Part shown: positions 31,248-63,225 of the stretch, piece by piece
Layout: every line of letters begins with the position of its first letter
Position numbering within the stretch: the stretch's first letter is position 1
IMG/VR virus record: IMGVR_UViG_3300031999_007842
Coordinates: 53,708 to 117,707 of that record
Reading direction: 5' to 3' (one strand)
Length of the DNA: 64,000 nt
From: a virus
Lineage: Duplodnaviria; Heunggongvirae; Uroviricota; Caudoviricetes
Notes under the pieces: model-generated
What the model was told of the DNA's origin: nothing
Databases searched by the model: none
Seen by the model: only the letters and a program-made list of their open reading frames with translations
Program-made: the position numbers and the translations under genes

Positions 31248-31509
31248 ATTGACGATGTGGCAAGCAATTCTTGGCCCTTTCCCAGAAGGAACAATTGCCA
31301 GATTCAGAGATGGAAGATTCAGGAGAGGTTATGTGGAAGGAGAGATCATAGGCTATTTCTTGTATTATGTGTATGATAATATGAGGAAGATGAAACCTAA
31401 TACATTTTCATACAAAGTCAAACTAGGCAAGCAAGCCTGGAATCTGTGCTATAAGAGACCAAGCACAGTAATCAAAGTCCTTAATGGACAAAAGAGGAAA
31501 AAAGAATGA
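31228..31509 (+). CDS. W-x-A-I-L-G family (MWQAILGPFPEGTIARFRDGRF)
   Basis: closely resembles 13889..14131. Confidence 0.45.
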   Translation: MKKLGNKLTMWQAILGPFPEGTIARFRDGRFRRGYVEGEIIGYFLYYVYDNMRKMKPNTFSYKVKLGKQAWNLCYKRPSTVIKVLNGQKRKKE

Positions 31510-32519
31510 GCTACGGAAATAGAGAATCAAAAGAGAAGCCAACACGAAGTAGGCTCAAACGACTGTTCTCCTTCAAGGACGATCACGGTGACTGGAGGAT
31601 AGGTAAACTCATTACTGCTGGAGTGTTAATTGCTATCGTGCTTTGCACGTTCTTTATCACAATGCTATACTCCGCACCAGTGGGTTACCAATCAATTCTT
31701 ATCGATCCTTCAGGAACCAAGTCCTACGGAGCCAGCAATGGAGCTTGGGGCCTCAAGATGCCTTGGCAAGGTCTAGTGATAATACACTATTCAATGCAGA
31801 CAGTAGGATTCTGGGGAGATGGAACAGATGCAACAGCAGACATGCCAGCAATACATACACACAGTTCAGACCTGCTTGAGTTCGATGTTCATGCACTATT
31901 CAGATGGTCTTACAATCCAAAAGCATTGATACAACTCTACGAGAACTACCAAGACATGAGCATCGTCAAGAACCAAGTAGTAGCTTCAATAGTCAGAACA
32001 ACGATAGAGAATCATTTGCCAGACTGGAATGCCTTGGACATTGTAACTAGTAGACCACAGATAGCCTTGGAATTAGGAGAAATCATCAAGACCAAGATAA
32101 TGAATACACCCTCAATAAGCTATGCTATCGTTCCAGAGTCAATAGAATTCAACCTCAGAGATGTCTCAGCACCAACTTCATGGTACGATGCAATCGAAAG
32201 GAAATTGAACTCGGAACAAGATATCGTCACAGCAATGAACAACAAGCAGATATCCATCATCAACTCAGAAGCATTAGCTGAACAGGAAATCATTGAAGCA
32301 ATGGGAGAAGCAAATGCAACAATCATCAGATTCCAAGGAGTTGCAGATGCAATCGATACCCTAGCCACAAGAACAGGAGCTAATGCATCAGAACTAGCAG
32401 TGCTACAAACATACCTACAAGGACTACAAGCAATAGCTAACTCGGACGGAAATAGCTACTTCTTCATTGGCTTCGACAAAGATGTGCCCTTCATAATCCC
32501 CATAGAATCTCAGCCATAG
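31506..32519 (+). CDS. SPFH/band-7 (prohibitin/HflC-like) membrane protein
   Basis: N-terminal TM helix; VGYQSILID, MPWQGLVI (cf. PWFQ motif), and C-terminal AEQEIIEAMGEANATII Ala/Glu-rich helix typical of the SPFH C-terminus. Confidence 0.55.
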   Translation: MSYGNRESKEKPTRSRLKRLFSFKDDHGDWRIGKLITAGVLIAIVLCTFFITMLYSAPVGYQSILIDPSGTKSYGASNGAWGLKMPWQGLVIIHYSMQTVGFWGDGTDATADMPAIHTHSSDLLEFDVHALFRWSYNPKALIQLYENYQDMSIVKNQVVASIVRTTIENHLPDWNALDIVTSRPQIALELGEIIKTKIMNTPSISYAIVPESIEFNLRDVSAPTSWYDAIERKLNSEQDIVTAMNNKQISIINSEALAEQEIIEAMGEANATIIRFQGVADAIDTLATRTGANASELAVLQTYLQGLQAIANSDGNSYFFIGFDKDVPFIIPIESQP

Positions 32520-43560: not shown

Positions 43561-43794
43561 ATGGCCATTAATATGAGTGAATTAACACAGAAGAGACCAA
43601 GTTCTTGCCCACGGATACGTTCCTGTACGAACGAAGTAGATGAAATAGATTATAGTTCTACTTGTGCAAGCAAGAATTGGATTTGGTGTCCTCTCATGAA
43701 AGAAGAAGCCAAAAAATATCTACCTAAAGCTCTTCCCTGTGAGTGGAAAATGATAAAGAAATTAGAAGGTGAAAAAAAAGATGGAGAAAAGTGA
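43561..43794 (+). CDS. small Cys protein of the W[VI][FW]C...KKY family
   Basis: NWIWCPLMKEEAKKYLPKALPCEWKMIKKLEG. Confidence 0.4.
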   Translation: MAINMSELTQKRPSSCPRIRSCTNEVDEIDYSSTCASKNWIWCPLMKEEAKKYLPKALPCEWKMIKKLEGEKKDGEK

Positions 43795-45016
43795 AGAAAG
43801 AAAGTATGATAGTCCAGGAGAAAGAATGGACAAGTTAATGCTGGAACTGAAGAAGAAACGAAGCCTTAAGGGATTGAGAACAGCAGTCTCTGAAGTCCTG
43901 GGAGCAGCCCCTGGAGATATGAAAGACTTCAGTTTCAATATTGGTGCTCATAAATGGAGAGGGACCATTTACCAGAAACGTAACTCTCTGATGGGTACAG
44001 TTGTTTCCTTCTTCGATACTAAACTCTATGTAGTTCGTGGATATCCCAAGATCAAGTACTCTGATGATTCACGAGTCTATCTGAGAGATTGTGTAGCTCA
44101 AGAGAAGATAGATGGAAGCAACTTTGGAATATTCCTACTTCCAGATGGAACAATGATGGCCAAGACAAGAATGGTTGTCAACTGGAACAATGCTGCCTAC
44201 AAGCGAAAAGATAAGACATGGCGACAACTCTTTGAAATGATAGACAATGGAGATCTCTTGAGGCGCATCAATGAATTGATTGTCAATCATGACTGTGTTA
44301 TCTATGGAGAACTTTATGGGAAGCTCAACCCAGGAGACTTTGTCAAATATTCTGTAGACATAGCATTCAAAGTCTTTGACATCCTGACCCGTAAAACAAA
44401 TAGATTCTTGCCGGCAAGTGAAGTGTATCGACTCTGTGAAGTCTATGAGATTCCTCATGTACAAGAAACCTGGAATGGCATTCTAACTGACAAAGAAATA
44501 GAGAGAATTGAATTCGAACTACAAGATCAAGTGAAGGACGATGGAATGGAAGGTTGGGTAGCTAAGACCTTCTTCAAAGACGAGAAAGATGTTTACATGT
44601 GCAAACTGAAATGCCAGAAAGTCAAAGAGGAATGCTGGGACAAAGATAGAAAGCCAATGATTCCTACATCAATAGTTCGTAAGGCAGTTCGCAAGACGCT
44701 TGATAACTTCCCTGAAGCTAAGACGATTGAAGAAATGGAACCACATGTGCTGGATGAACTTCGAGAGGAAGTCGAGGAAGTGTTGATTCAACAGTCATTG
44801 GATAGAATCAGAGCAGAGATAAGATGGGCATTGACTCCAGAAGATGAGGACTTGCTAAAGATAGTCATTGATAAGATGAAGGAGATGCAGGATAGAGGAA
44901 TAGACTTGAGCAATAAAGGCCACGTTCTCTCTAACCTTTCCAGCGCTTTGGGAACGATAAGTGGTGGGAAACTCTATCAACTCTATCATGCAGCTTTACG
45001 AGACATAAACACCTAA
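43769..45016 (+). CDS. ATP-dependent RNA ligase, Rnl2-like (nucleotidyltransferase superfamily)
   Basis: motif I QEKIDGSNFGIF (Lys-x-Asp-Gly, Asn not Arg as in Rnl2 KIHGTN), motif IV EGWVAK, motif V KLKCQK. Confidence 0.55.
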   Translation: MKKKMEKSEERKYDSPGERMDKLMLELKKKRSLKGLRTAVSEVLGAAPGDMKDFSFNIGAHKWRGTIYQKRNSLMGTVVSFFDTKLYVVRGYPKIKYSDDSRVYLRDCVAQEKIDGSNFGIFLLPDGTMMAKTRMVVNWNNAAYKRKDKTWRQLFEMIDNGDLLRRINELIVNHDCVIYGELYGKLNPGDFVKYSVDIAFKVFDILTRKTNRFLPASEVYRLCEVYEIPHVQETWNGILTDKEIERIEFELQDQVKDDGMEGWVAKTFFKDEKDVYMCKLKCQKVKEECWDKDRKPMIPTSIVRKAVRKTLDNFPEAKTIEEMEPHVLDELREEVEEVLIQQSLDRIRAEIRWALTPEDEDLLKIVIDKMKEMQDRGIDLSNKGHVLSNLSSALGTISGGKLYQLYHAALRDINT

Positions 45017-45848: not shown

Positions 45849-45992
45849 GCGGAGGTGGCTGAGTCAGGTTTAAAGCGCCAGACTGCTAACAGGGGCGAAA
45901 CTTGAAACAGGGTGATACTGGAATCGAATCATTAACCTGACAGATATCTGGTGGGCTTGCCCGCGAAGGTTCAAATCCTTCCCTCCGCGCCA
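45849..45992 (+). tRNA. tRNA-Ser(GCT), 57-nt intron at 37/38 (45889..45945), CCA encoded
   Basis: acceptor GCGGAGG/CCTCCGC, D-arm, anticodon stem CCAGA/TCTGG, loop CUGCUA|A, long variable arm, T-arm GAAGG-TTCAAAT-CCTTC, GCCA end. Confidence 0.7.
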
Positions 45993-46004
45993 GTTACAAG
46001 GAAT

Positions 46005-46160
46005 GCAGGGGTAGCTAAGTCAGGCCGAAAGCGCCGGGCTTAAGCGTCTTTCAAAGACCTTGAGGGCGTAGCTAAGAGGCGTTAAGCTCAAAGGCTTGAC
46101 ACTGAGACACCCGGTCACATAGGTGAAACATCGCCGGTTCGAATCCGGCCCCCTGCACCA
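46005..46160 (+). tRNA. tRNA-Leu(TAA), 64-nt intron at 37/38 (46045..46108), CCA encoded
   Basis: acceptor GCAGGGG/CCCCTGC, anticodon stem CCGGG/CCCGG, loop CUUAAG, variable hairpin TCAC-ATAG-GTGA, T-arm GCCGG-TTCGAAT-CCGGC; intron repeats exon segment GTAGCTAAG. Confidence 0.7.
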
Positions 46161-46167
46161 GTAACAT

Positions 46168-46241
46168 GCCGATGTAGCCTAACTAGGAAAGGCAGTGGCT
46201 TTGTAAGCCACCTCATAGGAGTTCAACTCTCCTCATCGGCT
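46168..46241 (+). tRNA. tRNA-Thr(TGT), intronless, no CCA
   Basis: full cloverleaf: GCCGATG/CATCGGC, GTGGC-TTTGTAA-GCCAC, AGGAG-TTCAACT-CTCCT. Confidence 0.7.
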
Positions 46242-46244
46242 TTT

Positions 46245-46317
46245 GGATCTATAGCATAACAAGGCAGTGCAGTGGACCTTTAATCCACATATCCGAGTTC
46301 AAATCTCGGTAGATCCA
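46245..46317 (+). tRNA. tRNA-Lys(TTT), intronless, no CCA; unusual C at position 33
   Basis: GGATCTA/TAGATCC, GTGGA-CCTTTAA-TCCAC, CCGAG-TTCAAAT-CTCGG. Confidence 0.55.
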
Positions 46318-46320
46318 TTC

Positions 46321-46394
46321 GGACCATTAGCTTAACCAGGTAGAGCGGTAGACCCTTAATCTACTAATTGCGGGTTCAAATCCCGCATGGTCCT
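46321..46394 (+). tRNA. tRNA-Lys(CTT), intronless, no CCA; C at position 33
   Basis: GGACCAT/ATGGTCC, GTAGA-CCCTTAA-TCTAC, GCGGG-TTCAAAT-CCCGC. Confidence 0.55.
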
Positions 46395-46399
46395 TCAGT

Positions 46400-46471
46400 G
46401 GCTTGAGTAGTGTAGTAGCAGCACAGTGGTCTGTGGAGCCACGAGCAAGAGTGCAATCCTCTTCTCAAGCC
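46400..46471 (+). tRNA. tRNA-His(GTG) with G-1, intronless, no CCA
   Basis: extra 5' G pairing with discriminator C; GTGGT-CTGTGGA-GCCAC; T-loop TGCAATC (non-canonical position 55). Confidence 0.6.
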
Positions 46472-46478
46472 CTCATAT

Positions 46479-46552
46479 GCCTGAGTGGACAAGCCTGGAA
46501 AGTCAGTTGCCTGCAGAGCAACTAAGCGGGGGTTCAAATCCCCTCTCAGGCT
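46479..46552 (+). tRNA. tRNA-Cys(GCA), intronless, no CCA
   Basis: GCCTGAG/CTCAGGC, GTTGC-CTGCAGA-GCAAC, GGGGG-TTCAAAT-CCCCT. Confidence 0.6.
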
Positions 46553-46557
46553 TTCAA

Positions 46558-46977
46558 GCAGGTGTGATGTAATGGCAACATCCCAGCCTTCCAAAGTCAA
46601 ACAGAAGGGCTAATAGATCACCATCACTTGTATAAGTGGTGATAAAATGAAAACACCAGCACAAATCAATAAAGAATATAGACAAAGAGTAAGAGAAAAG
46701 GCAAATCAAGTCTTCGGGAAGAAATGTTTCTTCTGCGGACATGAAGTAGGAAGAATGCCTCTTCATAATAAGAAAGGAGAAAAGCATCCTACTGATTTGA
46801 CTGCAAGAGAAGCTTTGAAGAATCCTGAAGATTGGGTTCGTCTATGCAAACATTGCCATCGAGGAGTTCATTTCTCTATGAATATCCTTGAAATGGATTG
46901 GGAACAAATAGTTAAACTAGCAAAGAAAGTTTGACTGAGGAAAGCTGATTATCTGGGTTCAATTCCCAGCACCTGCA
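46558..46977 (+). tRNA. tRNA-Gly(TCC) interrupted by a 349-nt intron (46594..46942) that contains an HNH endonuclease ORF
   Basis: 5' exon GCAGGTG-TG-ATGT-AATGGCA-ACAT-C-CCAGC-CUUCCA; 3' exon A-GCTGA-TTAT-CTGGG-TTCAATT-CCCAG-CACCTGC-A. Confidence 0.55.
46647..46934 (+). CDS. HNH endonuclease encoded inside the tRNA-Gly intron
   Basis: CFFCGHE...LHNKKGEKH...CKHCHRGVH = CxxC...HN...CxxH HNH-like; ORF ends 8 nt before the 3' exon. Confidence 0.5.
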   Translation: MKTPAQINKEYRQRVREKANQVFGKKCFFCGHEVGRMPLHNKKGEKHPTDLTAREALKNPEDWVRLCKHCHRGVHFSMNILEMDWEQIVKLAKKV

Positions 46978-46983
46978 CTCATA

Positions 46984-47058
46984 GGGGTAGTGGTGTAGTT
47001 TGGTCAACATCCCTGGCTTGGAACCAGGTGAACGTCAGTTCGAGTCTGGCCTACCCCA
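46984..47058 (+). tRNA. tRNA-Pro(TGG), intronless, no CCA
   Basis: GGGGTAG/CTACCCC, CCTGG-CTTGGAA-CCAGG, GTCAG-TTCGAGT-CTGGC. Confidence 0.65.
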
Positions 47059-47073
47059 CTCATAGTCACGGTT

Positions 47074-47795: not shown

Positions 47796-48764
47796 ATGGA
47801 TAAGAAATTGCTCTATCTCAAGTCAGTAAACCATGATGTCATCACTGTCTATATTGCTAAGGGAAGTTCTGTCCAGAAGACATTGAACTTACTGAAAAGA
47901 GAAGAGCCAATCGTACAGAATATTAAATCAAGAGTGACTAGGCAAGCAATCGAGACAGCATTCCAGAAGATCAAAAGCTTCCTAGCTAGTCCTCCTCCTT
48001 CAGAGAATGGATACATCGTTGTAGCTTCAGCCACTGACTTTGCTTGGACAGTAGAGTTCCTAATAGAGGAAGACTTCTATCGTTGTGGTAATGAATTCTA
48101 TTCTACACTTCTTGAAGAGATCCTATTACTCAAACTTTATCCAATAGGGATAATAACAATAGATACTAAGGAAGCCACGTTAGGTCACATAGGTTCCACG
48201 ATCCAGATTCTCAAGTACATGACTTCAGGAATACCAGGGAAGAGTCACAAAGGAGGACAATCTCAACGAAGGTATGAACGTGAAAGAGACATGGCAGTTG
48301 CAGCTTTCTTCAAACGAGTAGGAGATGCTGCTAAACTCTTTGTGGAGAACTATCCCATAGAAGAACTATTGATCTCTGGATGTGGGCAGACAAAGGATGA
48401 CTTCCTAAAGGCAAAGTACTTAGACTACCGCCTCAAAGCGAAGGTCACTGAAGTCATTGATACCCAATACACTGGTGAGCACGGAATCAGGGAAACCCTG
48501 CACAAAGCACTACCCCTTCTACAGAAGAATGCTTATGCAAGGGAGGTCCAGGTCGTTGAAAGGGTGTTTGAAATGCTGGGTAAGAACTTTGAGGCAGTAG
48601 TCTATGGACAAGATGAGATCAAGAGGCAGATTCATTCAATCAAGAAGATTATCAAGATAGAAGAGATCAAGGAAGAATATCAGAAGGAAACAGTTATCTT
48701 GCACTTTCACGGGGAACATTATGAGAAGATTAAGTCCTTGGGAGGAATAGTCGGAACCAAATAA
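47796..48764 (+). CDS. class-I peptide chain release factor, aRF1/eRF1-like, C-terminally truncated (322 aa)
   Basis: domain-1 NIKS motif (IVQNIKSRV) and YxCxxxF (YRCGNEF), domain-2 GGQ motif (HKGGQSQRRYER); by eye about 75 aa of domain-3-like sequence follows before the ORF ends. Confidence 0.7.
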   Translation: MDKKLLYLKSVNHDVITVYIAKGSSVQKTLNLLKREEPIVQNIKSRVTRQAIETAFQKIKSFLASPPPSENGYIVVASATDFAWTVEFLIEEDFYRCGNEFYSTLLEEILLLKLYPIGIITIDTKEATLGHIGSTIQILKYMTSGIPGKSHKGGQSQRRYERERDMAVAAFFKRVGDAAKLFVENYPIEELLISGCGQTKDDFLKAKYLDYRLKAKVTEVIDTQYTGEHGIRETLHKALPLLQKNAYAREVQVVERVFEMLGKNFEAVVYGQDEIKRQIHSIKKIIKIEEIKEEYQKETVILHFHGEHYEKIKSLGGIVGTK

Positions 48765-48925: not shown

Positions 48926-49168
48926 TTAAAGTGATTGCATGAATATAAATGCAGAGAATAATTCGTTTGTGCATTTCTGCACTCTTTCTCGGTTACCATA
49001 TATTGATTTCCATGTCCCTGGAAAAGATCGGGAACGCCTCTATCTGAAGATTGAATTAGGACAATTCTGGGGAATAACAATTGGAATTTGGGATATGGAG
49101 CATCATATCAGGAAATGGAAAAGACTAAGATTTTATACTAGATTAAAAGATCTCAAGAAGGAAAGGAA

Positions 49169-49492
49169 ATGGTAAGAATATATCACATGAGAACTAGATG
49201 GGAACCTGCAATATCAGATGGATTAACTTTGCCATGCTATATTTGTAGGGAAATTCCCAAGTTTGATTACAGTGTAGATCATGCTTTCTGGAAGGAGGTA
49301 GTAGAGAAAAAATATCGACTTGGAGTGATTTGTCTTCCTTGCTTAGATAAGTTGGCTACTGCAAAAGGATTGAATCTCTCGAAGCATCTGATTGAAGTTC
49401 AGTTCACAGGTATCAAGAAGACTATTGTCTTAGTTCCTACCAAAGTCTTCGACTACAGCAATTTCAAGAGAAAGAAGCCGGAAGAAAAGTGA
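49169..49492 (+). CDS. hypothetical protein
   Basis: co-directional ORF. Confidence 0.4.
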   Translation: MVRIYHMRTRWEPAISDGLTLPCYICREIPKFDYSVDHAFWKEVVEKKYRLGVICLPCLDKLATAKGLNLSKHLIEVQFTGIKKTIVLVPTKVFDYSNFKRKKPEEK

Positions 49493-49529: not shown

Positions 49530-50069
49530 TTGGAAACAAAGAAGGAAGAAAAAGGAAAGATCATAATGGTTGATAGAAAAGAAATTGTCCAAAAATATAT
49601 TGATGAATGCCGATCACTTTCTGCTCTTGGAAGAGAATATCATATTTCCCGTTTCAAAGTGAGAGATATTCTCGAGGAAGCTAATATTCCAATAAGGATT
49701 CGGGGATATAGACCAAGAACTTTGAGAATTCCTACTGATGCGCGGAAATTAGCTTACATCGCTGGGATTGTCGATGGAGAAGGAACAATAAGTTATACAC
49801 ATATAAAGAATGGATTCAGAGAGAAGGCTCCCTTCATTGCCATAAAGAATACAGATAAGAATCTAATTGATTGGTTAGTCAAAACTCTAGGAGGAAATGT
49901 GAGCGAAGGAAAGGTCAGGAAAGGTTGGAAGACTCCTTATAGATGGTACAAGTACTCGACGTTGGATGTCTATGATCTTGTGAGTGTCCTGAGACCTTAC
50001 CTAATAATTAAGAAAGAAAATGCAGATCTGGTTCTTAAGATCTGCAAAGAAAGGATGGGAAAGATTTGA
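49530..50069 (+). CDS. LAGLIDADG-family homing endonuclease-like protein with N-terminal HTH
   Basis: LAYIAGIVDGEGTIS = LAG(L/I)(I/V)DG(D/E)G motif. Confidence 0.55.
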   Translation: METKKEEKGKIIMVDRKEIVQKYIDECRSLSALGREYHISRFKVRDILEEANIPIRIRGYRPRTLRIPTDARKLAYIAGIVDGEGTISYTHIKNGFREKAPFIAIKNTDKNLIDWLVKTLGGNVSEGKVRKGWKTPYRWYKYSTLDVYDLVSVLRPYLIIKKENADLVLKICKERMGKI

Positions 50070-51163
50070 ACGCTCTCTCCAAGCATTTAGAAACTTGGTG
50101 GCTATTAAGAATTTCAGATTTCAAAGCAGGAAAAGCTCTTTCACCTATTACCTTGAGAGGTCTTTTCTATCTTATGCGATTGAAGGTAGGACAGAAGAAA
50201 ATGCCTAAGAAAGGAGGATTCTATGCAATCATAAAAAGAATAGAAGCAGAAAAGAAAGTAAATCGAGAAAAGCTTGGACTTGTCTCAGAACCAAAAGTCA
50301 ATATCATTTCTCGATGGGGTGAAGAGCCTCTTCTCAAGGCTGATTTGAACAAACTGAAAGGAGCCTTGGCATTTCTTTACATTGAGAAAAGTACTATAGT
50401 AGAAGCGATAGAACAAGATAAAAGCCTCACAGATAGAGGAATTGTCATAATTAAAGGAATGGGATTTGCTCCTAGGGAAATAAACAGAGTCTTGAAGAAG
50501 GCTCAAGAATTGGGAATTCCTATTTTCACACTCACAGACTTTGATGCATCAGGGATCTTAATAGATTTGAAGATCCAGCAATCTGGAGTCTCTACGACTA
50601 GATTGGGTATAGATCCAGATCTAGTAAAAACACTTGGTCTTAAAGTCTCAGATGTTCGAGAAGCTCTTCCCAGAGGCAAGGGTAAACTTGGCCATTTCAA
50701 ATACCTTCAAACCAATTATCCAAAACTAGCTAAAGGATTTCTAGATATTGGAGTAGGAGGACAGCCATATCGCATAGAGATAGATGGTGTCTTTGCATTG
50801 GCTGGAAAGGACAGGTTCATTGAGGAGATACTCAAACGTGCAGACTTAGCAGTTCCAGTCAAACCTGTCAAGAAGGCTTTGAACTATAAGAAAATACCCA
50901 AGAAGGTGGAAGGGATGAGAAGCACGGTTCATGATCTTGTAGACAATATGTTTACCAAGACTGCCATAGGTGCAGAGCAAGGACTCATAAAGAACAATGA
51001 GTCATTTAACAAGATACGCCTGAGTGAAATAGAGAAGAATATTGAAGACAAGATAGAGAAAAAGGGTGAAGAAGTTCCTACCACTCAAGTCTTGGAAGAG
51101 ACAATCAAAGCATTGCAAAAACTTCTGGCAGAACAAAAAGCCAAGGAGAAGAAGAAACCATGA
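50066..51163 (+). CDS. Spo11/topoisomerase VI subunit A-like protein, stand-alone (mini-A-like)
   Basis: ITLRGLFYLMRL (R-x-hFY catalytic-Tyr motif of the winged helix); Toprim-like IEKSTIVEAIE ... GIVIIKGMGFAPRE ... PIFTLTDFDASGILI (E...DxD...G). Confidence 0.5.
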   Translation: MNALSKHLETWWLLRISDFKAGKALSPITLRGLFYLMRLKVGQKKMPKKGGFYAIIKRIEAEKKVNREKLGLVSEPKVNIISRWGEEPLLKADLNKLKGALAFLYIEKSTIVEAIEQDKSLTDRGIVIIKGMGFAPREINRVLKKAQELGIPIFTLTDFDASGILIDLKIQQSGVSTTRLGIDPDLVKTLGLKVSDVREALPRGKGKLGHFKYLQTNYPKLAKGFLDIGVGGQPYRIEIDGVFALAGKDRFIEEILKRADLAVPVKPVKKALNYKKIPKKVEGMRSTVHDLVDNMFTKTAIGAEQGLIKNNESFNKIRLSEIEKNIEDKIEKKGEEVPTTQVLEETIKALQKLLAEQKAKEKKKP

Positions 51164-51983: not shown

Positions 51984-52289
51984 GTGACTATGAAAGAAGA
52001 AACAACGAAGATGAAAGACGTAGTCTTAGTCTCTAGAAAGACCACATGTATCCCAATTGCAATTCCAGAAAGGACTGTACCATCCTCGAGAGTCTTTGAC
52101 ATTAGGCAATATAGAGAAAAAGACTGGGTACTTATCTTCATGGACAAAGAAACCTATGAATCACTCAAGGCCTTATGTGAAGCACGAGGGCTTGATGTGA
52201 AGAAAGTTGTATATGGCAGTATTATGAAAACAAGAGATCTATTAAGGGAGGAAGAGAAAAAGAATGGTAAAGAGAAATCCGAGCTTTAA
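51984..52289 (+). CDS. hypothetical protein
   Basis: co-directional ORF. Confidence 0.4.
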   Translation: MTMKEETTKMKDVVLVSRKTTCIPIAIPERTVPSSRVFDIRQYREKDWVLIFMDKETYESLKALCEARGLDVKKVVYGSIMKTRDLLREEEKKNGKEKSEL

Positions 52290-53124
52290 AGTTGGATCAG
52301 TTGAAGGAAGAAAATCTTTGAGGGTTAGCGAACTATTTAGATGCCCTAGAGCATTACAATTTGAGTTCCTCTGCTCTCCAAAGGATCCTGAAAAATACGA
52401 GACAGTGCGAGGAAGATGGCTTCATCTGTTATTTGAAGAATACTTAGGAATCGATCCTTCAGTGTACCAGTCTTATTTCCGTAAGAAGATGCTCAAGTAT
52501 GTGGATGTCTCATATTCTGATCCTTACGTAAAGAGGAGACTGGTTGAAGATCTGCTTGAGTATGAAGCCAAGATCAAGACTTTTCTTCTGAATACAAAGC
52601 GTGGCAAAGATATTTCGAAGAATGCTCACAAGTATCAGATAGAAGAGACAATGAGGATTCCGGTAGAAGAACTGGGTTTGAACCTTCCTATACCTATGGA
52701 GATTCAGCAGAAATATTGTCTTTCAGGGAAACCAGACTTTAAGTACAAAAACCAGATAGTAGAGATCAAAGGTCGAAAAGAATTAGCTCCTAATCAGAAA
52801 ATGCAGGCTTTTGCATACTCCTTTATGGCTGATGTCGTAGAACCAGGAATCAAACATGGTAACCTCTATCTGCTATTGGGTGGTAGCAAGGTGAATGTAA
52901 AAAGGAATCCTTTCTATACATGGAGACCATGGAAGAGAAATCCTAACCAAGAACTAGCTGATAGAATCACTGAGCTGATCTGGAACTTTGAGAAGATAGG
53001 AGATAACAAGGAAATGCTAGAAATTAGAAGAAGTGGTGATTGCCAATTCTGTGACTATTGGACTTCATGCATGACTATCAAGAAACCACGAACAGATTGG
53101 AGAGTTATCTACAAGAAGAAATAG
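52264..53124 (+). CDS. Cas4-like / RecB-family PD-(D/E)XK nuclease with 4-Cys cluster
   Basis: N-terminal Cys (CPRALQFEF), GKPDFKYKNQIVEIKGRKE (D...E-x-K), C-terminal CQFCDYWTSC (C-x2-C-x5-C). Confidence 0.6.
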   Translation: MVKRNPSFKVGSVEGRKSLRVSELFRCPRALQFEFLCSPKDPEKYETVRGRWLHLLFEEYLGIDPSVYQSYFRKKMLKYVDVSYSDPYVKRRLVEDLLEYEAKIKTFLLNTKRGKDISKNAHKYQIEETMRIPVEELGLNLPIPMEIQQKYCLSGKPDFKYKNQIVEIKGRKELAPNQKMQAFAYSFMADVVEPGIKHGNLYLLLGGSKVNVKRNPFYTWRPWKRNPNQELADRITELIWNFEKIGDNKEMLEIRRSGDCQFCDYWTSCMTIKKPRTDWRVIYKKK

Positions 53125-53137
53125 GAGGTGCATGTAG

Positions 53138-54106
53138 ATGGAAATGAAGAATAAGACTGTAATAGGTAAGAAGATATTCGCCTATGTTAAAGTCAAGGAC
53201 CTGAAGATTTCCGAATATAATGTTAGGCCAGGAGCCACACCTGAAGAGAAGGAGGAAATCAAGACTGAATTAGCCAAGTCGATAAAAGAGCTAGGACTTC
53301 AACAACTTCCAGTTATCACTCCAGAAGGAGAAGTCTTCATTGGAGGGCGGAGAACTATAGCATTCAAAGAACTTGGAGAGGAATGGATGCTTGCCGAGAT
53401 CAGAAATGCTGCACCCTTTGAACAGATGATTGCTTCTTACACAGAGAACTTCCATAGAAAGAGTCCAGATTATATGAATGAAGGTAGACTTTTCAAAGAG
53501 ATGATCAAGGAAGGAGTTGCAAAAGGAGATATCAAGTTGCAAGGCCATGGTGACAAGGGGCATGGTATACTTGGCAAGAAACTAGGAATTTCCAATGATT
53601 ATGTAGATGCCAGGGTTAGAATCTTTGAAACTCTCAGTTCCGCCGCCGGCGGATCTGGAATAGCCTTTGAACAAGCAAGGATGCTAAGTACCTCAGATAT
53701 ACCAGATGATAAAAGGGCAGAACTTGTAAAGATGGCAAGTGAAGGAATCAAGACCCAAGATCTCAAGAAGATTATAGCAACTACAAATGCTACCAAGGCA
53801 CTACTTGAGGGAGAAACCGAGGAAGTACAGAAACAAGCAGAAAAGGAATTCAAAGACCAACTATATACTAAGGACTTGGACATTACAGCGATTAAATGGA
53901 GACTCGAAGAGATCGCTGGAGATTCCCATTCAACTGGCAAAGGAAGAATCTGGTGGGATGAGCATGGAATCACTTCAACAGAGGAAGCAATAGCGTGGTT
54001 CAAGAAATATGGTGGTCGACATCTTAGAGATCTAAAAGGTTCAGATGGCGAATGGGACAAGACAAAGGAGAAAATGACAAACGGAGGAAAGAATGAGGAT
54101 GACTGA
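53138..54106 (+). CDS. ParB/sulfiredoxin-like nuclease-domain protein
   Basis: LAKSIKELGLQQLPVITPEGEVFIGGRRTIAFKELG matches the ParB N-terminal box (G.RR..A). Confidence 0.55.
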   Translation: MEMKNKTVIGKKIFAYVKVKDLKISEYNVRPGATPEEKEEIKTELAKSIKELGLQQLPVITPEGEVFIGGRRTIAFKELGEEWMLAEIRNAAPFEQMIASYTENFHRKSPDYMNEGRLFKEMIKEGVAKGDIKLQGHGDKGHGILGKKLGISNDYVDARVRIFETLSSAAGGSGIAFEQARMLSTSDIPDDKRAELVKMASEGIKTQDLKKIIATTNATKALLEGETEEVQKQAEKEFKDQLYTKDLDITAIKWRLEEIAGDSHSTGKGRIWWDEHGITSTEEAIAWFKKYGGRHLRDLKGSDGEWDKTKEKMTNGGKNEDD

Positions 54107-58875: not shown

Positions 58876-60441
58876 ATGAGCGTAAGAGAGAAAGTAAAAG
58901 TCCAAATCGATGAGATCGAGAAGACTCTTTACGGAATGAAAGATGTCGTTAAGATCTATTGCCTCTCCAAAGCAACTGATCTCACTGTAATGCTGCTAGG
59001 AGCTCATGCAACAGCCAAGTCTTCTCTAGCAAGAATGTGGTCTATTACCACTGGACTCAACTACAGAGTTGTCACTTCCTCAGAAGTGGATGAATCGTTG
59101 ATCGCATATATTGACCCAGCTATCTTCAGAGAGAAGAACATAGTCCAGATGCGTAGAGGAGAACTGATGGAGAAGGAGCACATAATTATCGATGAATTCT
59201 TCTTATGGCTGAATAAGTATCGTGCAAAGTTGCACCAGTTACTAGAAGAGCATACCTATGCAGGATTAGATGTGCTAACTAAGACTTACACTTTCCTGTC
59301 TAACCCGCTGTCCGAATATTATGCAGGGCAGATTGAGGAGAAGAACTTAGCTACGATTGACAGAATAGATCTATTTGTCCCGGTTAATCAGCCTAAGATC
59401 GTACCAAGCGAAACCATGATGCGAAAGTTTGCTAGATATGGTAGAAATGAGAAGACTCTAGACAAGGTAATATCTTGGGAAGATTATCAGAAAGCAAAGG
59501 AAGAAATCGCTCAAGTCACTGTGCCTTCAAGAATAGTGATATGGCTCACATTGTTTGCTCATTCGATGGCCTCCTGTAAACATACTCCTGACAAATGGTC
59601 TGTTTCTCTAGCCAAGATGAAGAAACTTTGTGCAGCTTGTAATGAAAACAACCACCTATGTGGCAAGGTCTTGTTATCCAAACCAAGATTTCTACGAGCT
59701 ACTATTATCCTAGCCAAAGGTCTTGCTTGGCTGAATGGGCGAAGTGCTGTTAGCTTCGATAATATTAATGAAGCCATCCATTATACACTTCCACATAGAA
59801 TCGCCTGGATACAAGAAGAATTATCCTATGCGGAATCACTAGAACTAGTTCCCGAGTTAACTCAGCAATTCAATGACGAGATGCTTGCGTGGAAAAACCG
59901 TGGTATATTCTCTGAATTAGCAAAGATCATAGAAGGGAGCAAGAAGACTCCACCTGTATATGAAGAGAAGATCGGTCAGAGCTTAAGCATTGATGTCTCG
60001 GAAATTCATCTTCTGAAAGAGTTTGTAGCAGAGACTCTCCAATCAGTCAAAGAAGATATCTCTAAGTTCTATATAACTGAAGGGGCAATAGAAGACTTTG
60101 ATACATTGGCAGATCTTCAACAATTCCTAGAGCAATCTGGAATAGAAGCATTTGATAGAGATGAGATGATCTATGCAATAGTGAGCAAAAGCAGCAAACT
60201 TTTCTTCTCAGTTCCATCTACACCAGAAAACATAGAGAAATTTGTTGGTGCCCTTGTAGCCTTCCATAAGAAGGAACAAGTACAGATCGATGACAAGACA
60301 TTGCTTGAAAGGAAGTTTGGAGAAAGTCTAGCATTCGACTCAGAGCTAATAAAGATGAGAGAATACCAGGGTGAAATCCAGATGCTTTTCGAGGACAAGG
60401 TCAGACGAATTGCATTTGTTAAACTATGGAGTGGACCCTGA
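58876..60441 (+). CDS. MoxR-like AAA+ ATPase (divergent Walker A)
   Basis: VMLLGAHATAKSSLAR (degenerate P-loop), HIIIDEFF (Walker B), FLSNP and ATIDRIDLF resembling MoxR ATQNP / AQLDRF. Confidence 0.5.
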   Translation: MSVREKVKVQIDEIEKTLYGMKDVVKIYCLSKATDLTVMLLGAHATAKSSLARMWSITTGLNYRVVTSSEVDESLIAYIDPAIFREKNIVQMRRGELMEKEHIIIDEFFLWLNKYRAKLHQLLEEHTYAGLDVLTKTYTFLSNPLSEYYAGQIEEKNLATIDRIDLFVPVNQPKIVPSETMMRKFARYGRNEKTLDKVISWEDYQKAKEEIAQVTVPSRIVIWLTLFAHSMASCKHTPDKWSVSLAKMKKLCAACNENNHLCGKVLLSKPRFLRATIILAKGLAWLNGRSAVSFDNINEAIHYTLPHRIAWIQEELSYAESLELVPELTQQFNDEMLAWKNRGIFSELAKIIEGSKKTPPVYEEKIGQSLSIDVSEIHLLKEFVAETLQSVKEDISKFYITEGAIEDFDTLADLQQFLEQSGIEAFDRDEMIYAIVSKSSKLFFSVPSTPENIEKFVGALVAFHKKEQVQIDDKTLLERKFGESLAFDSELIKMREYQGEIQMLFEDKVRRIAFVKLWSGP

Positions 60442-62223: not shown

Positions 62224-63225
62224 GTGAAAGTCAGACTTAAATGCAAGAAATGTGGTTATGAGTTTGAGACTAACTTACAGGTCAATCCACTGGGATCCAT
62301 GAAGCCTGGCACTAAGAATCCTGCTTCTGGAATAAAGATAGATAAGGATTCACTTGACAAGATCCTTGAAGCTACGAAAGGCGCTTCCAGAGAAGAACTT
62401 GAGAAGCTAGGTCTTCTCATTGAACCAGGAGATTGGGATAACGCTCAAGAGCGTCTTGCATTAAGGAAATTTCTGCTTGAGAACTTGAAGATTAGCAGAG
62501 ACAAGAAACAGCAACGTGGAGAGAAATACGTAGTAGCTACAGAACCCTGGGCTATGGGTGATTCTTTCAGAGATGTTGACCTAACTTCTTCAGAAGTGAA
62601 GAGCATGGGTGTAGATGATCTAAGGATGGTTCCTGGAGTTACAATGCAGAAGAAAGTCTATGGTATAACGAAAGGGCGTGACACTGAGGAGCTTAAAGGG
62701 ATCAAATTCCTAGTAATCATAGATGGTTCAGGAAGCATGATATCTGGTAGTGGAGGAAGAGGTTACATAGACGGAGGCAAGATCGGCAAGGCTCTTTTGA
62801 TAGGGAAAGAGGTCTATGAGATAACTAAGAGACTAGCATTTGAATATCTACTGGTTCTCTTCTCTGACAAAGGAGTAAAGGTTGACAAGAAAAGATTAAG
62901 AGAATTCTGGGCAGATGCTAATGAGCGACTCAATTATGCTATATGGAACGGAGGGACACGCTTAGCTTCTGGACTAGAACAATTTACAGAGGAAGAATAC
63001 AAGGATTCCAATGTGATAGTTATCTCTGACATGGATATCTCAGACTTTGTTGAGACACGAGAGACCATCATTAAACTATCCAAGTTGACAAATACCTTCA
63101 AGATTATTGTCATCGAAGATACGAGCATAGATATAGAGGAACGACAGAAGAAGGTTAGACAGATGTTCCCGGCCGACATCAATCTGAAGATTATGTACCT
63201 GGGTGTGAAAAGGGAAGGAAGTTAG
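62224..63225 (+). CDS. von Willebrand factor A (vWA) domain protein
   Basis: MIDAS DxSxS (VIIDGSGSM) and downstream VIVISDMD; N-terminal CKKCG zinc ribbon. Confidence 0.55.
   Translation: MKVRLKCKKCGYEFETNLQVNPLGSMKPGTKNPASGIKIDKDSLDKILEATKGASREELEKLGLLIEPGDWDNAQERLALRKFLLENLKISRDKKQQRGEKYVVATEPWAMGDSFRDVDLTSSEVKSMGVDDLRMVPGVTMQKKVYGITKGRDTEELKGIKFLVIIDGSGSMISGSGGRGYIDGGKIGKALLIGKEVYEITKRLAFEYLLVLFSDKGVKVDKKRLREFWADANERLNYAIWNGGTRLASGLEQFTEEEYKDSNVIVISDMDISDFVETRETIIKLSKLTNTFKIIVIEDTSIDIEERQKKVRQMFPADINLKIMYLGVKREGS

Follow-up and report, generated by a model that had tools for sequence, protein, structure and literature searches.

A Spo11-like gene beside a homing endonuclease gene

What might an apparently solitary relative of the topoisomerase VI A subunit do for a large virus, and is the LAGLIDADG homing endonuclease gene immediately upstream its partner or merely its neighbor? 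These questions are raised by a window of 64,000 nucleotides (the whole stretch of viral DNA analyzed here), in which a first-pass annotation made from the sequence alone had pointed out both genes. Its two open reading frames, at 49530..50069 and 50066..51163 on the + strand, are present in the sequence, as are all of the motifs that it quoted. They encode 179 and 365 residues, respectively, and share 4 nt at their junction. The pair had been described as translationally coupled through the sequence ATGA, but the actual overlap is TTGA, in which the TTG start codon of the Top6A-like gene lies over the TGA stop codon of the LAGLIDADG ORF. The TTG start is supported because the N-terminus that it gives, MNALSKHLE, aligns with the N-termini (MNKFS..) of homologs, which themselves start with ATG or TTG. 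The real start of the LAGLIDADG ORF may be an ATG at 49566. We also considered an alternative genetic code as the reason for the many short ORFs and rejected it, since similar gains were seen whichever single stop codon was recoded.

Domain architecture and conservation of the 365-residue protein

Judged by its sequence, the product of the downstream gene is a Spo11/Topo VI-A-fold protein with a predicted catalytic tyrosine and predicted Toprim acidic residues. It combines the winged helix (5Y-CAP) and the Toprim fold by which the type IIB A-subunit superfamily is recognized. In alignment A1, which contains homologs at 45-73% identity, the segment 50066..50365 (all features given here are on the + strand) comprises an N-terminal helix (residues 3-20, LExWW) and a truncated 5Y-CAP winged helix. 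The latter holds the motif ITLRGLFY35LMR, with R31 at 50156-50158, the catalytic-type Y35 at 50168-50170 and a Topo VIII-type R38 at 50177-50179. The Toprim domain follows at 50366..50665 (Pfam match over residues 104-199), with the motifs IE107KSTIVEAIE, KGMGFAPRE and LTD158FD160ASG. Within it lie E107 (50384-50386), followed by K108, the motif IV residues G133-F134 (KGMGF), D158 (50537-50539), D160 (50543-50545) and G163. Next comes the T2BI box, a dimer-interface and tyrosine-capping motif, which here reads R236-I-E238-I-D240-G-V (50771..50791). The protein ends in a C-terminal extension of ~110 aa (residues 255-365; 50828..51160), for which AF2 predicts three long helices (279-304, 319-336 and 338-363; pLDDT about 65-80) that are absent from Topo VI-A.

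To see how far these features are shared, we searched 1.84 billion representatives with the family profile, which returned 423 matches. We classified 181 relatives, made up of the family and 150 of the 423 matches; 38 of them are proteins of 720-1100 aa with the A module at the C-terminus, to which we refer as fused relatives. The catalytic residues are invariant across alignment A1. Wherever a stand-alone relative has a residue at position 35 it is tyrosine, and so it is in all but one of the fused relatives, the exception having Pro. The arginine at Tyr+3 is likewise invariant in A1; it is kept by 69 of the 78 stand-alone relatives that align there and by 26 of the 31 fused ones. E107, K108, G133-F134, D158, D160 and G163 do not vary in A1 or among the 38 fused relatives. 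The R, E and D of the T2BI box are invariant in A1; the pattern R[IV]E[IL][DN][SAG][VI] runs throughout the clade, with the Top6A-like family itself showing R-I-E-I-D-[GAS]-[VI]. This conserved box (R236/E238) is the one feature that speaks for a putative Top6A-like dimer. In one relative, P0029, a 344-aa LAGLIDADG intein is inserted exactly after F134 in Toprim motif IV. The invariant catalytic residues, together with this intein in Toprim motif IV, suggest that the protein is functionally important. The original suggestion of a Spo11/Topo VI-A-like product thus stands, with R31-G-L-F-Y35 as the tyrosine motif and E107, D158, D160 and G163 invariant.

The protein is not a canonical Topo VI-A subunit

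We next asked whether the protein could simply be the A subunit of a conventional topoisomerase VI. A search with TP6A_N and Toprim profiles had been proposed earlier; the Toprim domain was recovered (PF21180, above the gathering score), while TP6A_N gave no Pfam match to the 365-residue protein. The NCBIfam Top6A equivalogs scored 37, 31 and 17 bits against cutoffs of 424-531. Among solved structures, a direct sequence search with the single protein found no match, and a search with the family profile found only sub-threshold matches to Top6A. In hmmsearch, the catalytic segment pairs with STLREAYYV (R99/Y103) of Methanocaldococcus jannaschii Top6A, a segment in which the alignment is weak. 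The protein begins at the equivalent of residue ~69 of the M. jannaschii subunit, so that it lacks the N-terminal ~68 residues with which Topo VI-A and Spo11 clasp their partner. Furthermore, Topo VI-A and Spo11 have a Top6B or Top6BL partner, whereas none was found for this protein, and the extra C-terminal helical domain is present only in the latter. With the Top6B-binding N-terminus missing, equivalog scores roughly 10-fold under the cutoffs and no adjacent Top6B, we ruled out a canonical Topo VI-A.

A Toprim domain is also compatible with a different activity. JetD and MksG (of Wadjet and MksBEFG) are hydrolytic nucleases that work within SMC-like complexes and are not known to have a catalytic tyrosine. 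A protein of this kind would not be a tyrosine transesterase at all, and would instead degrade host or competitor DNA in defense or counter-defense. In contrast to these nucleases, the 365-residue protein has a conserved Tyr35 and capping box, and no Jet or Mks genes lie nearby. Tyr35 is never substituted in the aligned stand-alone relatives (with one Pro among the 38 fused ones), R38 is conserved along with the T2BI box, and the matches to Topo VI-A are clearly stronger. PADLOC gave no hit for the protein; among its neighbors it matched only the Cas4-like protein and the "HEase", and there are no JetABC-like neighbors. We therefore regard a JetD/MksG-like nuclease as very improbable.

Signatures and fused relatives suggest a place for the family on the Topo VIII side

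If the protein is not Topo VI-A, two groups of mobile-element homologs come into question. Topo VIII comprises type IIB topoisomerases of plasmids and integrated elements, in which a GHKL, H2TH and transducer moiety is fused or adjacent to the A moiety and the T2BI box reads RVELNAM (Gadelle 2014; Takahashi 2020; PMC7671362); it has a specific C-terminal region (PMC7671362, PMC8185306). Mini-A proteins are stand-alone and encoded by mobile genetic elements, lack the N-terminal CAP segment, carry RxxFY, E and DxDxxG, and are about 300 aa long (PMC7671362). The T2BI box was defined in the same work, in which the signature xWELDAL of Mini-A tells the subfamilies apart and an Arg at Tyr+3 is reported only in Topo VIII and absent from Mini-A (PMC7671362).

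The first-pass annotation had called the gene mini-A-type, and there are good reasons to consider this. Like the Mini-A proteins (Takahashi 2020; e.g. AND74899.1 of Pseudomonas phage NP1), the 365-residue protein stands alone on a virus or mobile element with no B gene, has a truncated CAP without the N-terminal segment, and conserves the catalytic Tyr (RxxFY), E and DxDxxG. Archaeal viruses are among the carriers of Mini-A, and bioRxiv 10.1101/2021.07.29.453957 mentions thaumarchaeal homologs. A divergent member of this subfamily would presumably do what Mini-A does, for example act as a DNA-nicking replication initiator, as proposed for skuldviruses. The signatures point elsewhere. Where NP1 Mini-A has SWELDAL, our protein has RIEIDGV, which fails the discriminating xWELDAL motif, and it carries the Arg at Tyr+3. 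At 365 aa it is about 65 aa longer than Mini-A, with the 110-aa helical C-terminal extension. Although hhalign matched the family to NP1 Mini-A at E 1.2e-5, the match spans the Toprim domain only (110 columns). No PHROGs family matches the protein, tblastn found no match to it in 50,697 phage records, and in a BFVD fold search the sole matches were partial ones to Toprim of the DnaG type, with none reaching E<=1e-3. A rolling-circle initiator would also be implausible for an element of ~172 kb. The mini-A label was consequently dropped, and we consider membership in that subfamily quite improbable.

The comparison with Topo VIII gave a different picture. As in Topo VIII, the protein is encoded by a mobile element, has a CAP without the Top6B-binding N-terminal part, shows RxxFY followed by Arg at Tyr+3 and a T2BI box of the R-V/I-E-L/I-N/D-A/G type, and has an extra C-terminal region; its N-terminal helix is a homolog of the B-A linker helix of Topo VIII. 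RIEIDGV and RVELNAM have the R, the E and the hydrophobic pattern in common, with D for N and G for A. The nearest homologs outside the family include GHKL-transducer-A fusions. One of these, P0041, consists of HATPase_c, Topo-VIb_trans and the A module (Top6B equivalog E 1e-16) and matches the published Topo VIII plasmids of H. jeotgali and P. amygdali. When the family was aligned to these two published Topo VIII by hhalign, CAP, Toprim and T2BI were all included (222-264 columns, E 5e-6 to 2e-5), RGLFYLMR being paired with RQLYYKFRP and RQLFYAVRP, and RIEIDGV with RVEINAF and RVELNAM. In fused relatives, the HMM matches take in the C-terminal extension as far as profile position about 350-358; the extension is also collinear with that of published Topo VIII, for which the alignment scores are insignificant.

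The two published Topo VIII differ from our protein in that they are carried by plasmids rather than a large virus-like archaeal element, and the 365-residue protein has no fused or adjacent GHKL-transducer moiety. Sequence similarity is remote: the family HMM gives the published Topo VIII 24 and 16 bits and NP1 Mini-A 18.9 bits, which are about equally low. We also constructed a neighbor-joining tree, a plain one without support values and with NP1 as the single Mini-A outgroup, which serves for description only. Given the similarly low scores and the nature of this tree, the placement of the family on the Topo VIII side rests mainly on the signatures and the fused relatives. Altogether, the matches appear to form a large and essentially undescribed radiation allied to Topo VIII; its A modules are fused to a B moiety, adjacent to one, or, as in the Top6A-like family, without one. 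A GTDB genome scan with the family patterns found no relative; IMG/VR contained one.

No B moiety is recognizable near the gene

We then turned to the missing ATPase. Split Topo VIII are known, some of them cut exactly before the linker helix (PMC7671362). The 365-residue protein could therefore be the A subunit of a two-gene Topo VIII-like topoisomerase, whose GHKL-transducer partner is encoded elsewhere on the element, is too divergent to be seen, or is supplied by the host; such a holoenzyme would carry out ATP-dependent strand passage. In keeping with this, the nearest enzymes beyond the family have B and A either fused or encoded side by side, and the retained N-terminal linker-type helix is what one would expect of the A subunit of a split enzyme.

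To look for such a partner, we built a B-moiety HMM from the B parts of GHKL-transducer-A relatives. The HMM scored 360-489 bits on fused relatives and 94 and 195 bits on the pieces of split genes. It gave no match below E 0.01 in the window together with L012 and L015 (in all 84 kb of the ~172-kb contig), nor in 29 family loci totalling 310 kb. Similarly, no GHKL, Top6B or transducer family was among the best 25 of 29 Pfam families matched by the 142 + strand ORFs of the window (E<=1e-3). The Top6A-like gene stands alone, with no recognizable GHKL partner nearby, as had been noted at the outset.

These negative searches weigh against a split enzyme, as does the position of B, which lies immediately upstream in every fused or split relative examined. 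The sister-group genes sit on small integrase-resolvase elements without B (contigs of 10-20 kb, of which 10-13 kb each were read), and the segment by which Top6A binds a host Top6B is absent from the 365-residue protein. One locus group offered a candidate partner: in the subclade of L009 and L007, a conserved ORF of ~500 aa two genes downstream shows ordered N-box/G1/G2-like motifs. These GHKL-like motifs were recognized only by eye and with a loose regular expression, no Pfam family matches the ORF, hhalign with the B profile gives it a probability of 0.9%, and it has no homolog in the window. We rejected it as a "Mini-B" and keep it as a lead. The database match of this ORF is only a C-terminal fragment. 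With 88 kb of the element lying beyond the 84 kb searched, we give a split Topo VIII a small but real chance.

The LAGLIDADG gene is a sporadic insertion

We next asked if the upstream gene could be a functional partner. The 179-aa ORF (49530..50069, +) encodes an I-CreI-type, single-motif, free-standing homing endonuclease with an N-terminal HTH. Its LAGLIDADG motif, LAYIAGIVDGEG, lies at nt 49749-49784 (residues 74-85). The ORF matches I-CreI by phmmer at E 1e-5 to 1.6e-10, phrog_5046 at E 1.4e-22 and the PADLOC "HEase" at 5e-8; HTH_28 and LAGLIDADG_1 fell below the Pfam cutoffs. Like other free-standing enzymes of the I-CreI type, it has a single motif, aligns with I-CreI over about 100 residues, and is sporadic, being inserted beside a conserved DNA-metabolism gene. 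It differs from them by the extra N-terminal HTH of about 70 aa and by lying outside any intron detected with Rfam, which found only tRNAs and no group I or II intron around the ORF.

A module of two cooperating DNA-cleaving proteins could be read from the same-strand, 4-nt overlap of the two ORFs, which had first been taken for an unusual pairing. If that were so, the endonuclease gene should accompany the Top6A-like gene in other loci. Of 24 family loci with at least 600 nt visible upstream of the Top6A-like gene, 23 lack the LAGLIDADG ORF, and the sole exception (L021) is a 99%-identical contig. The ORF forms part of a strain-specific insert of ~1.2 kb between the aRF1-like and Top6A-like genes, along with two small ORFs of 78 and 107 aa (48939..49492, +), neither of which has an equivalent in the syntenic loci L002 and L008. 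What fills the upstream spacer varies, and L008 has a tRNA-Asp in place of the insert. The pairing therefore does not hold for the family; another relative instead has its LAGLIDADG within the gene, as the intein described above. Related elements are full of homing endonucleases and inteins. Since it is absent upstream in 23 of the 24 loci, the gene is best read as an independent selfish homing endonuclease in a variable spacer, an instance of homing-endonuclease parasitism of a conserved gene, and a two-nuclease module seems hardly credible.

The element and its probable host

The element is a contig of ~172 kb that was assembled twice, once as ena:ERZ27247977:k141_5059899 with 171,794 bp and once as a JGI twin with 171,825 bp; our searches covered 84 kb of it. 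The mobile-element setting that had been proposed for the gene is borne out, and one relative is in IMG/VR. Several observations concern the host. An integrated copy adjoins an archaeal rpoD-L18e-L13-S9-rpoN-enolase-S2 cluster, a Nitrososphaeraceae MAG is the source of the fused relative P0052, and the element carries an aRF1-like gene and an intron-containing tRNA. It also encodes its own Topo IB, which is conserved on related large contigs and whose nearest named relatives are from Nitrososphaeria MAGs. From these features, the virus-like element is associated with archaea, probably Nitrososphaeria.

We compared 27 loci and found no universally linked partner gene. The most frequent neighbors were the aRF1-like gene (9 loci), a 101-aa ORF (7), a 133-aa Zn-finger-like ORF (6), a ParB-like protein (6) and a Cas4-like protein (5). 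The gene lies in a block with the Cas4-like PD-(D/E)XK nuclease and the ParB-like protein, which no loci but those of the closest large relatives share (5-6 of the 27). Such recurrent neighbors reflect only synteny among close relatives, and the same applies to the argument for a recombination module that could be drawn from them.

A proposed function

By analogy with its characterized relatives, the protein would most likely function as a Mg-dependent homodimer that cuts DNA by way of a tyrosine link and so serves viral recombination or replication. Following the paradigm of Topo VI-A and Spo11, two copies would dimerize via the R-I-E-I-D-G-V (T2BI) box, and each Tyr35, positioned by R31 and R38, would attack one DNA strand, with Mg2+ held by the Toprim residues E107, D158 and D160. 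The outcome would be a double-strand break with 5'-phosphotyrosyl links that could be resealed. Without an ATP gate there would be no strand passage, so the protein would break and rejoin DNA in the manner of Spo11 and would not work as a topoisomerase. The weakest step in this proposal is the role, which may be to start or resolve recombination-dependent replication or to serve genome maturation of the element. The element's own Topo IB, available for relaxation, and the block with the Cas4-like and ParB-like proteins suggest that a role in recombination, replication or maturation is most likely.

Overall, then, we favor, and think it reasonably probable, that the gene encodes a catalytically intact, partner-less type IIB A module, related to Topo VIII, on a ~172-kb archaeal virus-like element, that it would use Spo11-like tyrosine chemistry to break and rejoin DNA for recombination, replication or maturation, and that its LAGLIDADG neighbor is selfish. 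A bolder version, which we rate as unlikely, is that the family serves large archaeal (Nitrososphaeria-associated) viruses as an autonomous Spo11-like enzyme that needs no ATPase; it would introduce programmed tyrosine-linked double-strand breaks into the viral genome, either to initiate recombination-dependent replication or for the maturation of genome ends.

Significance

Knowledge of Mini-A and Topo VIII dates from 2014-2019, but no archaeal representative has been characterized, and the literature offers no biochemistry for any Mini-A or archaeal Topo VIII (PMC8185306, PMC11894792). What appears to be new here, from sequence comparison, is a well-conserved B-less family with Topo VIII-type signatures, which would constitute a partner-less branch of the mobile-element "Topo VIII" group. 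The adjacency of the LAGLIDADG gene, for its part, is ordinary homing-endonuclease behavior. The context is a tractable one: a Topo IB is encoded on the element itself, and one family member has been invaded by an intein. These two facts suggest that the protein has a functional and important part to play, and that simple relaxation probably does not require it. If the 365-residue protein cleaves DNA alone, Spo11-type break formation would gain a minimal model. The clade, with at least 423 cluster representatives, mixes fused, split and B-less forms, and so provides material for asking which came first. Should the bolder version prove true, these viruses would possess a counterpart of meiotic break formation, and the mixture of forms within one clade would mean that the ATPase gate was gained or lost repeatedly, a point that bears on the origin of type IIB topoisomerases and Spo11.

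Fold and conserved residues of the Top6A-like protein

The Top6A-like ORF (50066-51163, + strand, 365 aa) overlaps the LAGLIDADG ORF before it (49530-50069, + strand, 179 aa) by four bases. The first-pass annotation read this as ATGA coupling; the actual overlap is TTGA, formed by a TTG start and a TGA stop. The TTG start is credible: starting from its first residue, the protein (N-terminus MNALSKHLETWW) lines up with homologs that open with MNKFS or MSKFS (codons ATG or TTG).

A word-indexed protein search with the 365-aa protein returned 33 proteins, 32 of them at 45-100% identity and one at 27%. In an alignment of these 33 (A1), R38, R67, E107, K108, D158, D160, G163, R236, E238 and D240 are invariant, and R31 and Y35 nearly so. 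Every motif quoted in the first-pass annotation was found in the sequence, and its Spo11/Topo VI-A-like assignment held up. Residues 104-199 match Pfam TOP6A-Spo11_Toprim at 34.6 bits (E 2.4e-8; gathering score 24.1), and when an AlphaFold2 model built from A1 (mean pLDDT 83) was compared with the PDB by Foldseek, the only matches with E<=1e-3 were eight Topo VI-A chains (best 8e-10). In profile alignments, R31/Y35 correspond to R99/Y103 of M. jannaschii Top6A, in a weakly aligned segment, and also pair with RQL[YF]Y of two published Topo VIII. The protein has the Top6A/Spo11 fold with its catalytic residues intact.

Placement among type IIB A subunits

Canonical Topo VI-A can be ruled out. 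Because the chain begins at about the equivalent of M. jannaschii residue 69, it lacks the segment holding Top6B, and NCBIfam Top6A equivalogs score 17-37 bits on the 365-aa protein, far under their cutoffs of 424-531.

A stand-alone class of A subunits has been known since 2019. Mini-A was defined by Takahashi et al. (PMC7671362) as stand-alone A subunits of ~300 aa on viruses. According to the same study, a short C-terminal dimer-interface box, T2BI, tells the subfamilies apart, reading (R/K)xExx(A/S) in Topo VI, RVELNAM in Topo VIII and xWELDAL in Mini-A, and an Arg three residues past the catalytic Tyr is reported in Topo VIII only (PMC7671362). In Pseudomonas phage NP1, Mini-A (L010:41163-42062, minus strand) has RQLYY, DHDPSG and SWELDAL. 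The window protein is likewise stand-alone, but it carries RIEIDGV in place of xWELDAL and R38, invariant in A1, at Tyr+3. It is also longer than ~300 aa, with a C-terminal addition of ~110 residues that form three long helices in the AlphaFold2 model. The earlier mini-A-type label does not fit these features. The Arg at Tyr+3 is shared with Topo VIII; the box keeps R, E and the hydrophobic pattern of RVELNAM, with D in place of N and G in place of A. A profile of the family (the close relatives of the 365-aa protein) aligns with NP1 Mini-A within the Toprim domain alone (110 columns, E 1.2e-5); with Topo VIII from Halalkalicoccus jeotgali plasmid 5 (264 columns, E 1.9e-5) and Pseudomonas amygdali pMPPla107 (222 columns, E 4.7e-6), the alignments span linker helix, CAP, Toprim and T2BI box. 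The protein had no match in PHROG or phage genomes and no significant one in BFVD. The Top6A-like gene is real and well conserved; we describe it as a B-less member of the type IIB family that falls on the Topo VIII side and is not a typical Mini-A.

A wider clade of fused and stand-alone proteins

When 1.84 billion cluster representatives were searched with the profile, 423 proteins matched at E<=1e-3. We surveyed 181 proteins, comprising the family and 150 listed matches of the 423. Ahead of the A module (truncated 5Y-CAP winged helix plus Toprim), 38 of the 181 have N-terminal additions of >300 residues and 17 have 100-300. One fused protein, P0041 (866 aa), consists of HATPase_c, Topo-VIb_trans and then the A module, which is the Topo VIII architecture, and its N-terminal half matches a Top6B equivalog at 1e-16. 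Another fused member comes from a Nitrososphaeraceae MAG. Where the position aligns, Y35 is Tyr throughout the 181 proteins except for a single Pro in a fused protein. E107, K108, D158, D160, G163 and E238 are invariant, where aligned, in 38/38 fused proteins, and stand-alone relatives keep the same six, some positions having one or two conservative exceptions at most. Across the clade, the T2BI box reads R[IV]E[IL][DN][SAG][VI].

With the family HMM, published Topo VIII and Mini-A reach no more than 16-24 bits, which sets the clade apart from both published sets. In a plain NJ tree without support values, the window family and a sister group of stand-alone proteins (~340 aa) neighbour a radiation that interleaves fused with stand-alone forms. 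The sister-group A module P0082 (L016:4296-5312; L017:3852-4868) is found on small elements that also encode a tyrosine integrase and a serine resolvase. The clade is large and undescribed in the literature searched.

Searches for a B partner

The first-pass annotation had recognised no GHKL partner nearby, and our searches agree. Among the 25 best of 29 Pfam families matched by the 142 + strand window ORFs (E<=1e-3), none is a GHKL or transducer family. We also built an HMM from the B moieties (the GHKL-transducer ATPase half) of 38 fused relatives. As a positive control, fused relatives score 360-489 bits with it and split-gene pieces 94-195 bits; in these controls, B is always directly upstream of A. 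The HMM found nothing below E 0.01 in the window plus L012 and L015 of the same contig (84 of 171.8 kb), and no match in 29 family loci (310 kb total) or in the sister group's small integrase-resolvase elements. As far as is visible in these 84 kb and 29 loci, the family is B-less.

The main rival explanation is that the protein is the A subunit of a split enzyme with an unseen partner, and its retained linker helix supports this. Further support comes from one subclade, where a ~500-aa ORF two genes past the Top6A-like gene on its downstream side (L009:11973-13484; L007:2948-4369; 40% identity between them) has a GHKL-like pattern of ordered motifs, EGIDNELE, GFGTGM and GLFGEG. Of the ORFs >=150 aa in the loci scanned, it alone passed a loose N/G1/G2 regex; its N-box Asn is Asp in L007. 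However, it lacks statistical support as a GHKL protein, with no Pfam match and an hhalign probability of 0.9% against the B-moiety profile, and has no homolog in the window. We regard it as a possible "Mini-B" lead, and retain the B-less reading for the window family.

Homing elements around the gene

The product of the 179-aa ORF is a LAGLIDADG endonuclease of the I-CreI type, with a single motif and an HTH at its N-terminus. This ORF and two small ones (48939-49492) make up an insert that has no equivalent in the syntenic loci L002 and L008; L008 has a tRNA-Asp (L008:9906-9980) at the position of this cassette, directly upstream of the Top6A-like gene. This spacer is a variable hot spot. 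The first-pass annotation had stressed a pairing of two DNA-cleaving proteins, but where >=600 nt upstream of the gene could be compared, in 24 family loci, a LAGLIDADG ORF was present in L021 alone, and L021 is 99% identical, i.e. the same virus. In the related protein P0029 (L007:91-1908), the Top6A-like gene is itself split by a 344-aa LAGLIDADG intein between F134 and S135, in the conserved KxMGF Toprim motif (Cys1 ... SGN/S junctions; two LAGLIDADG motifs). The literature that we searched mentions no intein in type IIB A subunits. Other genes of related elements also look intein-invaded, and several window ORFs match homing/HNH endonuclease PHROGs (phrog_5046 and phrog_2255 twice each, phrog_3106, phrog_4234). 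Elements of this kind are heavily colonised by homing elements, and on this evidence the LAGLIDADG adjacency is best read as selfish-element behaviour around a conserved gene, incidental rather than a two-nuclease system.

By eye, a 95-aa ORF within the tRNA cluster (46647-46934, + strand) shows a CxxC...HN...CxxCH pattern. The RNA ligase of the relative L002 has 749 aa, versus 415 in the window, and the L002 MoxR-type ATPase reaches 1221 aa and gives faint intein/LAGLIDADG_3 matches. A 136-kb relative has a TnpB-like gene (OrfB_IS605 + Cas12f1-like_TNB; L004:12282-13571) 1.2 kb downstream of the Top6A-like gene.

The element and its host

The window covers positions 25,843-89,842 of a 171,794-bp metagenomic contig, and an independent 171,825-bp assembly encodes an identical Top6A-like protein. 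Almost all genes are on one strand. The order RNA ligase (43769-45016 in the window), tRNA cluster, aRF1-like, Top6A-like, Cas4-like nuclease, ParB-like and MoxR-type ATPase is common to 122- and 134-kb contigs. In the tRNA cluster (45849-47059, + strand), ARAGORN calls six genes (Thr, Lys x2, His, Cys, Pro), and Rfam gives a 141-nt full-length tRNA match at 45849-45989, which must contain an intron of ~70 nt. Rfam also has a weak tRNA-like match (46889-46980). L008 has 10 tRNAs. The aRF1/eRF1-like release factor (47796-48764, + strand) has a GGQ motif, and matches Pfam eRF1_2 at 1e-28 and TIGR03676 at 4e-61, below cutoff. In 9 family loci, its gene is found upstream of the Top6A-like one. It is unusual for a virus-like archaeal element to carry a class-I release factor; we saw no sign of stop-codon recoding.

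The Cas4-like PD-(D/E)XK nuclease (52264-53124, + strand; TIGR00372 3e-10, PADLOC Cas4 8e-11) and the ParB-like protein (53138-54106, + strand) are encoded 1-3 kb downstream of the Top6A-like gene, and the ParB-like gene recurs within 3-7 kb in the window, L002, L007, L008 and L009. About 2 kb beyond the window's right end, the contig encodes a eukaryotic-type topoisomerase IB (L012:13330-14901, 523 aa; Topoisom_I_N, Topoisom_I, Topo_C_assoc). Its homologs occur on related 110-170 kb contigs, and its nearest named relatives are from Nitrososphaeria MAGs (45-47% identity). Inteins are suggested by the length of several homologs, 695-752 aa, at a query coverage of ~62-67%. Also encoded are a MoxR-type AAA+ ATPase (58876-60441), conserved in close relatives, a weak VWA-like protein (62224-63225; Pfam VWA_CoxE E 0.0055, below cutoff), a DUF2201 (VWA-like) protein (L015:6945-8204) and an SPFH/Band-7 protein (31506-32519).

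No capsid or terminase gene was recognised in 84 kb of contig, so the "virus" label rests on the IMG/VR classification of a relative. The related protein P0031 (L006:9956-11002, on a 215-kb scaffold) is encoded in a ~12-kb island of unknown genes, flanked on one side by a 2-hydroxyacid dehydrogenase gene and on the other by an archaeal rpoD-L18e-L13-S9-rpoN-enolase-S2 cluster; no tRNA or integrase was seen nearby in 21 kb of L006. Its start has been called too far downstream, as an in-frame MTKFTESLERWW occurs 45 nt before it. An archaeal host is indicated; the intron-containing tRNA and the aRF1-like gene also point there.

Proposed activity and role

The protein combines the Top6A/Spo11 fold, intact catalytic residues, a conserved interface box and strong conservation with no B gene in the regions examined. 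By analogy with Topo VI-A and Spo11, it would act as a homodimer with composite active sites, making Mg-dependent, tyrosine-linked breaks in both DNA strands, and these breaks could be resealed. Strand passage would not be expected, because the ATP gate is absent. In the closest large relatives, the Top6A-like gene travels with the Cas4-like exonuclease and the ParB-like protein. Given this company and the element's own Topo IB, the role that we favour, as the weakest step of this proposal, is that the protein may start or resolve recombination-dependent replication, or serve in genome maturation.
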